DNA from: Microcoleus sp.
GTDB lineage: Bacteria; Cyanobacteriota; Cyanobacteriia; Cyanobacteriales; Microcoleaceae
Direction of reading: 5' to 3'
DNA length: 64,000 nucleotides
Assembly: GCA_042408215.1 (NCBI GenBank)
Contig: JAYFMW010000020.1
Coordinates: 256,001-320,000 of the forward strand
Numbering within the stretch: the first letter of the stretch is position 1; each line of letters starts with the position of its first letter. The translations under genes were made by a program, and so were the position numbers. Below are positions 3,066 through 64,000 of the stretch, piece by piece. A model generated the notes under the pieces. It saw nothing but the letters and a program-made list of their open reading frames with translations, was not told the DNA's origin and ran no database searches.

Positions 3066-3507
3066 GGGGAAAAAGTAGGACATAAGCCGGGTTCTGTTCT
3101 CTCAACTGCAAGCAATTTTCGAGGGCAGTTATCTATCTGGGACGCCTGTTACCAGACGCCTCAAGCGGTACCAAAAAACGGAACCGGTAAAAGACCAACC
3201 GTAGTCCCTCCGACCTTGCTCCCAACCGGGGTTTACCTAGCCAGCACCTCTCGATGCTGCTGGTGCGCTCTTACCGCACCTTTGCACCCTTACCAAATTA
3301 GTTGTTGCTTTGCAGTCAAAAATCCTCAGTTACTTACTAATGACCAATGACTGCTGACTGATGACTAATTGGCGGTATCTTTCTGTGGCACTATCCTCAC
3401 GATCGCTCGCACTGGGCGTTACCCAGCAAGTTTGGTCTTTCGGGAGCCCGGACTTTCCTCAGACTAGCTTTCGCTAATCCGCAACCGCCTGCGCCTACTT
3501 TCTCCCC
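3066..3507 (-). ncRNA. rnpB: RNase P RNA (bacterial type A)
   Basis: Minus strand reads GAGGAAAGTCCGGGCTCC ... AGTGCCACAGAAA ... GGTAAACCCC ... ACAGAACCCGGCTTA. The ends (GGGGAGAAAGTAGG / CCTACTTTTTCCCC) pair as P1. Confidence 0.95.
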
Positions 3508-24953: not shown

Positions 24954-25086
24954 TATCATGTCCGGTTAATTCGTTCTTGTATAATTTGCGCTCTGGTAGG
25001 GCGGGTTTTACCAACCATAATTGTTGAAAACTAAGTATCTCATAAACCCGCTCCCCCCATGCTGTTCGGATGCCACCGGACTTGAG
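24954..25086. mobile_element. MITE-like element with TATCATGTCCGGT...ACCGGACTTGA termini enclosing a GTAGGGCGGGTTT REP
   Basis: Inverted termini; the same terminal motif recurs at 53545-53560, with variants near 28436 and 29887. Confidence 0.6.
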
Positions 25087-25610
25087 CTCAGTTCCCGAAC
25101 CGCCCTCTGATCTGTGAGTTGCCAAATCGTCCTCATCAGCTTAATTTTCAGCAATCAATTGCGATGATTGCTGTGTAGGATAAGATATTAGCAGCACGAT
25201 CGACTTCTCAGGATTTTCTACCCAATCCTCAATTAACTATTACACTGACCTATCTACCAAGCAACGCCGCCGTGCGATGGTGCGAACTGTGGGGTCTAAC
25301 AAATACTGCTTTGAAGTCAATTGAAGCGGTTGTTTATCAATAATCAGTTGTGGTGCATATGTAAAATTTGTGAATTAGTCAAAACATCCCCTTGACATCG
25401 GACGATCGATCCCAGGGGTGTATTGGGTTCACGATTTTTTTTCAAAAGAACTTTCAGTCTTCAGACTTCTACCCCCGTCAGGGAGTGTCAAAGCGTTGAA
25501 TTTGATAGATGAGGTTGGTGTGTCGCAAAAGCGCGATCGGATCGCCATTGTCCCCGACTACTACTTAGTGGCTAATGCTATACACATCTCCAACAGACTC
25601 GGCGACGACA

Positions 25611-53289: not shown

Positions 53290-53703
53290 TCATTAGTCAT
53301 TAGTCATTAGTCATTAGTCATTAGTCATTAGTCATTAGTCATTGGTCATTGGTCATTGGGAATGGGGAATTGGGTTATTGGGAATTCGTAATTCGTAATT
53401 CGTCATTCGTAATTCGTAATTCGTCATTAGTCATTAGTTAGATAGAGTCCGAGCGCTCGCTTATATTTATTGTTGAGTGCGAGTGATTGTTGAGTGCGAG
53501 CTTCTAGCTCGCGAGCTAGAAGCTCGCACTCAAATGATAACTGATTAACCGGACATGATATTATTGGTTACTTGCTACCAATGCCCAATGCCCGATTCCC
53601 AATGCCCGATTCCCAATTCCCAATTCCCAATTCCCAATTCCCAATTCCCAATTCCCAATGCCCAATTCCCAATTCCCAATTCCCCATTCCCAATATTTTA
53701 AAA

Positions 53704-58383: not shown

Positions 58384-58660
58384 GTAGGGACAGGGAAATG
58401 CCCATTGGTGACAACTTAAGACTGAAAGCCTTGGAATCTCTCGTTTTTAGCTGAGTCTAGATCCCCCTAAATCCCCCTTAAGAAGGGGGACTTTGATAAA
58501 TTTTCTTGTCCCCCCCTTAAGAAGGGGGACTTTGATAAATTTTCTTGTCCCCCCCTTCTTAAGGGGGGTTAGGGGGGATCTGGCCTTAATAGTCAAACAG
58601 CATTCTCTGACTGGGTTTGACGTTAAGTTGACACCAATGGGCATTCTCGTTTCCCTACCA
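58384..58660. mobile_element. Composite MITE of the same family as 37069 and 54661, with three inner hairpins
   Basis: CATTGGTGACAACTTAA (58403) ... TTAAGTTGACACCAATG (58639), inside GTAGGG...CCCTAC. Confidence 0.8.
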
Positions 58661-58922
58661 TTTTGAGGAGACGGCATTGCCGTTTCCCTACCATTTTGAG
58701 GAGACGGAAATGCCGTTTCCCTACCATTTTGAGGAGACGGCAATGCCGTTTCCCTACCATTTTGAGGAGACGGAAATGCCGTTTCCCTACCATTTTGAGG
58801 ACACGGCAATGCCGTTTCCCTACTATTTTGAGGAGACGGAAATGCCGTTTCCCTACCATTTTGAGGAGACGGCAATGCCGTTTCCCTACTATTTTGAGGA
58901 GACGGCATTGCCGTTTCCCTAC
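58649..58922. repeat. 33-bp tandem repeat, about 8 copies, each with a hairpin
   Basis: Unit GCCGTTTCCCTACCATTTTGAGGAGACGGCAAT. Confidence 0.92.
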
Positions 58923-58947
58923 CCGCAGCGATGATTTAATATGAAAT

Positions 58948-61282: not shown

Positions 61283-62622
61283 TTGACACTCCTGGGCCTG
61301 AAGGCGTGAGGATTCTTAGTTCTTAGACCGGACTTAAATCAAGAACATTGCTGCACCCGATCCAGAGATCCAATCTCCCTAAGCGTTTACGATCTTTCTT
61401 GGATCGAAGTTCCGACGTGCCCCGTCGTACCTATCCCGCGATTAAGGATATTAATTGCGGCATTATGATCTCTATCCATCTCGCACCCACACTGACAAGC
61501 ATGGGTTCGAGTGGATAGAGATTTTTTAACGACTTCCCCGCAATTACTGCATTCTTGACTGGTGTATGTAGGATTTACCGCAATGGTAATCCGACCAAAC
61601 ACTTTCCCAAAGTATTCTAAGAACACTCTGAACTGATACCAAGAAGCATCGCTGATTGACTTGGCCAGACAATGATTTTTCACCAGGTTAGACACTCTCA
61701 AATCGACCTAAACTACTACGTCGTTTGACGTGATTACGCACCTTGCCAATTTGATAGCATGGTCTTTACGCTGTCTACTTATTTTGAGATGTCGCTTACC
61801 TAAAATCACTCTGGCTTTGCGGCGATTTGACCCACCCTTGACTTTCCGGCTTACAAGACGCCCGGCACGTTTTAACCGCGTTTCACCTCTACGCAGAAAT
61901 CTAGGGTTAGGAGCCGTTTCGCCATTTGAATCAGTATAAAACTCTTTCAATCCCACATCTAATCCAATTGTTTTTCCTGTCATTGGAGCGGTTTCCAGTC
62001 TATCTACAGAGATGCAAAACTGGACGTAATATCCATCTGCTCGTTTAACCAACCGTACCCGCTTAATTTGGTCTGGTTGATAGAAATTTAAGTCGCGAGT
62101 ACCTTTTAACTTCAGTCTACCAATTCCACACTTATCGGTAAAGGTGATTGATTTCCTATCTTCCGAGAGCTTCCAAGAATTAGTTTTGTACTCAACAGAA
62201 CGACAGTCTTTCTGGAATTTAGGAAACCCAACTTTTTTACCTTTGATGCCTTTTTTAACATTATCGTAAAAGCGGGAAATACTAGCCCATGCTCTTTCTG
62301 CACTAGCCTGCCTGGCCATCGCACCTAACTTATTGGCAAAGTCAAATTCAGACGCCCAAATCGCACAATACTTAGAAAGATCGAGCCAAGATTTAGCGCC
62401 ACCGTCCATCAGTCGTGCGAATCGATTTGTTGCGAATGAATTGACCAATTCTAATCGCTTCATTGACCGCCTGAAACTGACATGGTTTTGCGTAAGCCTT
62501 GAATTCGAGAACAAGCATCTTCTTTTCCTCCTGTTCCTATGATAACACATTTATCATAGGAATGCCTGACTTCCTCTAAAAATATGGAGAAAGTCCCCCT
62601 AGAAGGGAGAGGCTCTAACCCC
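61283..62622 (-). mobile_element. IS200/IS605-family element with inactivated tnpB
   Basis: Left end GGGGTTAGAGCCTCTCCCTTCTAGGGGGACTTT after AAATT. Right end AAGAATCCTCACGCCTTCAGGCCCAGGAGTGTCAA. Confidence 0.85.
61387..62518 (-). pseudogene. tnpB: tnpB pseudogene
   Basis: Starts MLVLEFK at 62518; frameshift near 62415; YEDL replaced by stop-VDL at 61710; otherwise clearly similar to TnpB at 26709-27947. Confidence 0.88.
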
Positions 62623-62718
62623 AATTTTCTGGTAGCAGGGTTTGTGTTCCGACTCGCCCGGCGGAATTTGCCCACTCAGAGCGGAGTAGATTCAGGGGGT
62701 ACTTATATCAAGTCGGGT

Positions 62719-63496
62719 GTGCGATTCGTTTAGCCTAAATGGATAGGTTCTCCTATCCAGGGACGGTTAGCCTGACTCCGCTGCGAGTTAGTGATAACTG
62801 ATTACACTTCTGGGTGAGACGTTAAGTCAAGTCCCAGTCCGCAGGTGCAGCGGTAAAAGCATATCCCCTATTTTGTTAGGTAGCAACTAACAGGATAAAG
62901 CGGGGATAAAAGGCAGAAAGACTCTTAGCCAAATGGAGTAGCTGTCGAGCCAGAACATATGCGTAGCGAAAGCAAAAATGTGTCTGAACCACCGTTATGA
63001 TAGATGGTCAAATGGCTGATAGACCAAGCCAAAAGGCAAGGATAGGGCATAAGCAATTATCGGATTGACTTATCAGCACTGCCCAAAAAACCCGGTGGAA
63101 AGCATTACGCTGTCATGTTCAACCAATGTGTAATCGGAACGAAGTAAAGCTCTCACAGCCCTTAAAAATAAGTAGGTTGCTAGCCGTAAGCTGTGAGTGT
63201 GAGGGATGGTTGCAGAAGCTAAAGCTCTGCTGTAATAGCAGAGATCTGCTGACAGCGCCCGGTGGTGTAAAAGATTGAGACTGAGTAACCCTTTAAAAGC
63301 CTAATGCCACAGAAAAATCTGATGGTGGGATGTAGGGGTAAAAGGAAAACTATCAAGCGGTATAAATCATCTCGTGATGCGATCGTACTGTATCCATAAC
63401 CAGGATTACATCACTCAGGAGCCGTGTGCGGTGAAAGTCGCAAGCACGGTTTTGTAGGAGAGATGGTGGGGGACACTCTGCCATCGACTCTCTAAC
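62719..63496 (+). ncRNA. ORF-less group II intron (IIB-like), 778 nt
   Basis: 5' GTGCGATTCGTT; domain V GAGCCGTGTGCGGTGAAAGTCGCAAGCACGGTTT (63419-63452) with AGC triad; domain VI hairpin ending CTAAC; no RT ORF. Confidence 0.88.
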
Positions 63497-63596
63497 TAAA
63501 TAGTCACCATGCCCAATTCCCAATGCCCCATGCCCCATGCCCAATGCCTCATGCCCCATGCCCCATGCCCCATGCCCCATGCCCCATGCCCGATGA

Positions 63597-63794
63597 TTAT
63601 TTAATATTAGCGATCGTGAAGCCCATTTGACACTCGTACCGATCGGGCAAATTTTCCGTAGGTTTGCTAACCGGATGGCCACAACGGAGCTCTCCACCAC
63701 TCCAGCGCGGTTGGCCAGTGCGATCGGCCAGCAAACAACCTTGGCAAACACACTGAGGGGCAAGCATCTGATTTTCCATTAAAATGACTAACAT
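63597..63794 (-). CDS. Small Cys-rich conserved-looking cyanobacterial protein (65 aa)
   Basis: MLVILM...VCQGCLLAD..GQPRW...C...YECQMGF; possible zinc-binding. Confidence 0.7.
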   Translation of the reverse strand: MLVILMENQMLAPQCVCQGCLLADRTGQPRWSGGELRCGHPVSKPTENLPDRYECQMGFTIANIK

Positions 63795-64000
63795 TTGATA
63801 CCTCCGGCAGGTTTCATACCAGTGATTACATTGTATGTCAGGACTTTGGAACAAAGAGCTTAACCTGAACACAATGTAATATTTATGTCAATGGGGCGAA
63901 ATCCGTAGTATCTTAAAAGATCGCAAATTCCCAATCCCCAATTTCTGAAGAGGTTGATTATTGTGACCAAGAATTTCTTGGTGGTACAAGCCCCCGGATC

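Follow-up and report, generated by a model that had tools for sequence, protein, structure and literature searches.

The window, as the 64,000-nt stretch of Microcoleus sp. DNA analysed here is called, contains an ORF-less group II intron that lies between the outer 13 bp of a MITE terminal inverted repeat (TIR) and the remainder of the same element (Table 1). The MITE is followed by a conserved 77-aa gene, the transcript of which would be antisense to the intron and whose TAA stop codon (63597-63599) is the target site of the MITE. The 77-aa protein contains cysteine, and in relatives its gene is located upstream of a Tic20-like gene. Among 30 orthologous loci, 13 were without the MITE, 13 carried an empty MITE, one (this genome) carried the intron and three were of other structure; by sequence comparison, the MITE is one that entered the stop codon of the 77-aa gene and lost its gene-side outer TIR. 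The inverted partner of the 3' flank near 63596, which had been proposed in a first-pass annotation, turned out to be mostly the last codon and the stop of this gene and not the other TIR of the MITE, seven of its ten bases (63597-63603) being present also in the 13 of 30 orthologous loci without MITE. Elsewhere in the window, the RNase P RNA (3068-3501, minus strand) was found to have one helix enlarged by about 60 nt of inserted short tandem repeats, and a 33-bp repeat array at 58447-58944 is open in several frames.

Table 1. Features of the intron, its target and the neighbouring genes in the window.
Feature	Position	Strand	Details
ORF-less group II intron, 778 nt	62719..63496	+	GTGCG at 62719, AAC end at 63496
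EBS2 AUGAUA	62997..63002	+	single-stranded between two domain I stems; covariation, consensus fold
Id3 stem-loop and coordination loop	63045..63084	+	loop with delta (63058) and EBS1 AUCGGA (63059-63064)
gamma nucleotide G	63204	+	partner of the last intron base (C)
Domain IV, short, without ORF	63256..63416 (limits approximate)	+	fold, tblastn
Domain V, AGC triad	63419..63452	+	Rfam RF00029
Domain VI and 3' end, bulged A at 63487	63457..63496	+	folds
One copy of the 3-bp duplication of the MITE (TTA on +, TAA on -)	62703..62705	+	T at -16, A at -14
Outer 13 bp of the MITE TIR, the 5' exon target	62706..62718	+	IBS2 62706-62711, IBS1 62713-62718; intact in L226
Remaining MITE: inner TIR, short tandem repeats	63497..63596	+	far end without outer TIR
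Empty 134-bp MITE of the same family	24954..25087	+	TCA duplicated on both sides
Second empty TIR end of the MITE family	53548..53560	-	
Conserved 77-aa gene	63597..63830	-	in 76/79 genus genomes; no NCBIfam match
Frameshifted IS605-type tnpB	61387..62550	-	Pfam OrfB_IS605, Cas12f1-like_TNB; outside the intron system

The description of the intron as a complete-looking ribozyme without an RT/maturase gene was confirmed. Besides the GTGCG start and the AAC end, Rfam model RF00029 (domain V/VI) matched positions 63417-63493 with 59.4 bits (gathering threshold 40), and an ORF check of 62719-63496 revealed no RT ORF; nor was an ORF remnant detected within the intron, the best tblastn match with two related intron proteins having E = 0.14. 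The ends conform to the group II boundary rule GUGYG...AY with regeneration of the empty site, and the boundaries could be fixed because the intron-free ortholog L226 shows the exact junction, with 98 of 100 flank bases identical. The boundaries fixed in this way regenerate the repeat terminus, as had been anticipated. Pairing of EBS1 with IBS1 and of EBS2 with IBS2, the criterion of subgroup IIB, was found by covariation, and we regard the intron as a probable non-autonomous group IIB intron of the chloroplast-like lineage, a classification that shares the confidence given below for the targeting and retrohoming explanation as a whole.

The genome (7.36 Mb, 30 contigs) contains five full copies of the intron, which are 99.9-100% identical; three are identical to one another and the other two carry the same single change. 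All five junctions are precise and compatible with ordinary reverse splicing. Relative to its neighbours, the window copy is in antisense orientation. The copies at C6:417046-417823 and C6:738291-739068 each have a gene upstream in the same sense, at distances of 84 and 434 nt, and would be likelier donors than the window copy. A promoter scan remained at chance level, with 2 promoters found and 2.1 expected.

All five copies are located after base 13 of a TIR that belongs either to the MITE family or to its IS630-like parent; this position is constant, while no two of the five share an element body or flanks. Each copy is preceded by TATCA-N2-TC-N-GGT. This strict motif has 95 matches in the genome versus 4.7 expected, and a TIR matrix yielded 466 ends at a score of at least 14 versus 25 in the reversed genome. 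The TIR ends pair head to head, giving 84 pairs of 60-400 bp, 43 of them of 96-111 bp; the flanking 3-mers are identical in 66 of the 84 pairs, and in pairs with TNA on both sides the middle base agrees in 64/75 cases (26% by chance). The elements are short and non-coding, carry TIRs, are flanked by a target duplication, exist in many copies and have a parent with the same TIRs, as expected of MITEs. Once joined, the exons of the intron agree with the repeat ends 24954-24969 and 53545-53560 in 14 of 16 positions, exactly as reported earlier. The dispersed repeat named at that time as the target thus stands and can now be described more specifically as the TIR of an IS630-like element and its MITEs.

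The parent (G000:C6:101066-102995) measures 1152 bp without the intron and has perfect 29-bp TIRs, TTA on both sides and two ORFs with HTH_33 and DDE_3; with the IS630 model NF033545 (cut-off 100), ORF B reached 127.7 bits and ORF A 89.3. It is the only full-length parent found in the genome and harbours the intron in its right TIR, and none of the other large TIR pairs that were checked as parents contained a related transposase. Of the 79 genus genomes, 30 encode related transposases. The full-length parents in relatives have the outer 13 bp in common and diverge from base 14 on, and the flanking 3-mers of full-length relatives are identical in 6/8 cases. Elements of the IS630 family duplicate a TA dinucleotide; the parent shows a 3-bp TNA duplication instead and is for this reason called IS630-like. 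Together with L178-L206 it represents an IS630-like clade that duplicates TNA and has a conserved A-run between the two ORFs. An occupied TIR end is probably unusable by the transposase.

As regards recognition of the target, EBS1 (AUCGGA) pairs with TIR bases 8-13 and EBS2 (AUGAUA) with TIR bases 1-6. In the window copy five of six pairs are formed by each, leaving one mismatch apiece, and EBS1 forms 6/6 pairs with the consensus TIR. Covariation was evaluated on 10 related, distinct introns, three of which had been used to spot the EBS positions: EBS1 gave on average 5.4 of 6 pairs versus 3.15 after permutation and EBS2 4.6 of 6 versus 2.81, none of 20000 permutations being as high in either case, and two further introns outside this set gave EBS1 plus EBS2 fits of 6+5 and 6+6. 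Within the TIR-targeting family EBS1 and EBS2 are unchanged in 11/11 rows. Three RT-bearing introns resident in this genome aim at other targets; in them the Id3 loop changes along with the exon and the single strand after the CCAYCGT stem likewise varies with the exon, whereas ACCCGG does not. The latter motif (63090-63095), which had been taken for EBS1, is present in 10/10 introns with different targets, forms a mean of 2.7/6 pairs with their exons and lies outside the Id3 loop, partly paired inside the intron; its 6/6 fit at this locus is a chance match. CTGATA (63016-63021), the former candidate for EBS2, reached 3.0 pairs versus 2.57 after permutation, with 2232 of 20000 permutations as high, and varies in 7/14 family members although the target is constant. 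The location of ACCCGG outside the Id3 loop had been named in the first-pass annotation as a result that would refute its reading. The targeting conclusion nevertheless survives both replacements, because the true EBS1 and EBS2 fit the repeat better than the ones proposed before; the earlier reading was largely right for partly wrong reasons. For EBS3-IBS3, no coordination-loop position pairs consistently, +1 being T, G, A or C in the family, and T at +1 in the five copies is no more than the 154/244 at empty ends predicts. Since the EBSs pair with that part of the TIR which is common to all subfamilies, the intron lands after base 13, inward, and splits the TIR. That the TIR ends are targeted by way of the EBSs is, in our judgement, highly probable.

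The number of compatible sites in the genome depends strongly on the rule applied. By strict pairing alone 1468 sites were obtained, 248 of which are TIRs, and five of five insertions in TIRs would arise by chance with a probability of 1.4e-4; strict pairing plus TNA left 323 sites, 221 of them TIRs, with a corresponding probability of 0.15. The looser pairing rule, which the window copy needs, gave 13979 sites with 346 TIRs, and 1402 sites with 310 TIRs when T-16 and A-14 were added; as the 13-mer and TNA had also served to construct the TIR matrix, the TIR share of all these compatible sites is partly circular. On these counts pairing alone is inadequate to explain the site choice, which suggests that the TNA duplication (T-16, A-14) is part of the recognised site.

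When 5' flanks were selected by intron similarity, 23 of 24 were TIR-like, 22 with both TNA and TIR; the one remaining flank is not a TIR. Of the 3' flanks, 18/29 differ from a known inner TIR at no more than two positions (against a background of 1.2%), five of the other 11 are doubtful and six are clearly unrelated, all six being contig-end fragments with unreadable EBS. With 5/5 copies in this genome and 23/24 5' flanks, the idea of a non-autonomous intron that uses a high-copy non-coding repeat as its target is borne out. The junction pattern was detected in 23 of 79 genus genomes (reversed control 0), which by our reading comprise 12 with a near-complete intron in a TIR, 2 with contig-end fragments, 2 nested, 5 scars and 2 unrelated cases. 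A sample of the phylum comprised 401 genomes, 4 of which had the junction; all four belong to the genus, and one of them has a 5-nt scar only. Among the 381 sampled genomes outside the genus the junction was found in none. The named records with the intron family (11 listed loci) are Microcoleus or Microcoleaceae. The Id3 17-mer was matched exactly 85 times in the species collection, and 73 of these sites did not align to the intron.

At several loci (L147, L153, L157, L275, L278, L280, L291) the TIR end is joined to just 5 to 46 nt from the start of the intron, and such short remnants are probably scars after intron deletion. The possibility that L292-L294 represent another autonomous intron family using this junction was rejected, as they are nested introns: in L292, L293 and L294 (G063, G010) and in L296-L299 an intron beginning with GCGCG is inserted 19 nt from the 5' end of related introns, TIR copies included, which amounts to an intron in an intron in a transposon end.

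A tree of the introns, for which 27 of 29 rows could be cut out, placed the 11 ORF-less introns in one clade apart from 16 RT-bearing ones (100/100), with the eight TIR copies as a clade within the ORF-less clade (100/100). The RT-bearing RNAs are 72-79% identical to the ORF-less introns over the core, and the search for an RT-encoding relative, proposed in the first-pass annotation, yielded no RT-bearing sister above ~79% identity in 79 genus genomes. Three fragments of 85-90% identity were rejected as RT-bearing sisters, being decayed copies without RT. Three ORF-less sisters (L034:1501-2268, L009 and L010) have other EBSs and other targets; the flank of L034 resembles what we take to be an IscB-type leader, and L010 lies just before a tnpB-like start. 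The RT-bearing L166 (G087:C11), 78% identical, interrupts a tnpB-like gene within its first codons; its EBS2 is that of the present intron and its EBS1 differs by two changes, which may indicate a possible route for retargeting.

Four RT introns reside in this genome. One is intact, coding for an RT-maturase-HNH protein (G000:C30:354158-355873) of 571 aa with a YADD motif and 333.7 bits against TIGR04416 (cut-off 300); the other three show YPDD, a stop or a frameshift. One broken RT intron (L143, G000:C6:777311-785208) lies inside tnpB and has several insertion sequences stacked in domain I. The proteins of the RT-bearing relatives comprise RVT_N, RVT_1, GIIM and HNH, and their best PDB match is 6me0_C (E 3e-106), a T. 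elongatus CL protein. The RNA of the intact C30 intron is 76% identical to the ORF-less intron over the core, and its own target has T-14 and C-16. We slightly favour the C30 protein as the helper acting in trans. It is kept as a candidate since trans action is known for T. elongatus introns, whereas homing failed for RmInt2 with foreign proteins.

Taken as a whole, it appears quite probable that the intron retrohomes into the ends of the IS630-like transposon clade and its MITEs. In this process an intron copy would be transcribed by read-through, its RNA would be spliced and then reverse-transcribed by an intron-encoded protein supplied in trans, and recognition would probably be aided by the A/T bases that the TNA duplication supplies at -14 and -16.

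Several alternatives have to be weighed against retrohoming into TIR ends. If the intron inserted at any EBS-pairing site and genic insertions were purged afterwards, the concentration in TIRs would be a survivor effect; 1220 of the 1468 pairing-compatible sites are indeed not TIRs, 6/29 3' flanks from fragmented multi-copy genomes are unrelated to TIRs, and purifying selection was raised by Mohr et al. for the TeI introns in the part of their paper available to us (PMC2882425). We nevertheless judge this improbable, because 22/24 5' flanks display the full TNA and TIR context, the near-identical copies in this genome leave little time for selection and the best-pairing sites are TIRs. Far more improbable is a single entry into one MITE with subsequent spread by MITE transposition or gene conversion: the MITEs are abundant and mobile here, but each copy occupies a different element body, one of them a full-length IS, the orthologous MITE is empty in 13 relatives and the insertion splits the TIR.

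The helper could also be missing from the genome, the copies then stemming from a recent burst via a protein that has since been lost or broken or is encoded on an unassembled replicon. The separate clade (100/100) of the closest RT-bearing RNAs with their 72-79% identity, the damaged appearance of 3/4 resident RT introns and the assembly in 30 contigs speak for this; yet one intact RT-maturase-HNH gene of a related lineage is resident, and as no closer RT-bearing sister was found in 79 genus genomes a distant helper may be the rule, so that we consider an absent helper rather unlikely, if still a serious competitor to the resident C30 protein. A more far-reaching and rather unlikely extension of the retrohoming explanation, which we put forward as speculation, sees the intron as a genus-wide hyperparasite that reads only the invariant outer 13 bp and the duplication and could thereby use the integrated ends of every subfamily, with 3'-exon pairing dropped and the 3' end 2 nt longer; it would pin elements including the only full-length transposase copy, which may keep making MITE targets.

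The 3' end deserves a separate comment. In subgroup IIB the branch A is usually 8 nt from the 3' end; in this intron the distance is 10 nt, and the same holds for the bulged A in 11/11 distinct ORF-less D5-D6 sequences caught. RT-bearing relatives have a spacing of 8 nt, as does a deleted ORF-less copy (L347/L353), and an HNH-bearing intron of another family, the end of which is unverified, has 10 nt. Where the ORF-less introns end is established from the empty sites and from a single compensatory γ-γ' change, this pair being G-C in 11/12 ORF-less rows examined and A-U in L009. A literature search at the level of listings surfaced no paper on a branch-to-end spacing longer by 2 nt. According to the available parts of PMC1865049, PMC3261151 and PMC4424553, introns of the B.c.I4 type likewise have their 3' splice site farther from domain VI than usual, owing to 53-56 extra nt (domain VII), in contrast to an excess of only 2 nt here. 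The conserved 10-nt spacing represents a small natural experiment on 3' splice-site choice.

The two principal ingredients of the system, IS inverted-repeat homing (RmInt2) and trans-mobilised ORF-less cyanobacterial introns (TeI3), are already published. RmInt2 of Sinorhizobium meliloti GR4 (class D, IIB) resides in ISRm17 inverted repeats, as far as the accessible portions of PMC4615759 and PMC5894124 describe it; like the present intron it targets both inverted repeats of an IS by EBS-IBS pairing and has relaxed EBS2 pairing. It differs in encoding its own protein, where our intron has none and probably belongs to the chloroplast-like lineage, and in its target ISRm17, where the present intron finds its targets mostly in the ~470 MITE ends per genome that an IS630-like clade provides. 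When RmInt2 was combined with foreign proteins in Sinorhizobium, it was excised but lost its mobility (PMC4615759). RmInt1 in ISRm2011-2 is, from what is available of PMC5894124, also a parasite of an IS630-family element and was proposed to block its spread; it sits within the element and has its own protein, unlike the present intron, which splits the TIR, a damage that splicing cannot undo. The TeI3 introns of Thermosynechococcus elongatus (CL/IIB1) are ORF-less as well and form families with different EBSs; on the evidence of the available part of PMC2882425, TeI3c is moved by the TeI4c protein with selection for A-14 and A-15, and as in the present lineage mobile DNA is aimed at with a protein in trans (here we infer one) and an A/T preference at -14 to -16. 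The TeI3 introns keep ORF remnants and are close to their helpers; in our case there is no remnant and the closest RT-bearing RNA is <80% identical. That part of the paper also reports none of them in TIRs, unlike this intron. Literature searches did not turn up a description of introns in MITE ends or of this intron, although one may exist in intron databases or in Simon et al. 2008, and the accessible parts of PMC8919778, PMC11602168 and PMC10969869 do not describe this intron or target.

The intron does not reveal a new kind of element. What it offers is a natural three-layer parasitism, with an intron on a MITE on an IS, in which both non-autonomous layers would borrow their enzymes. Because empty sites and an intact candidate helper are available and targets can be scored by the hundred, the system allows direct tests of two questions, namely how distantly related an intron protein and the RNA that it mobilises may be (~76% identity in the present case) and whether transposon spread is held back by introns.
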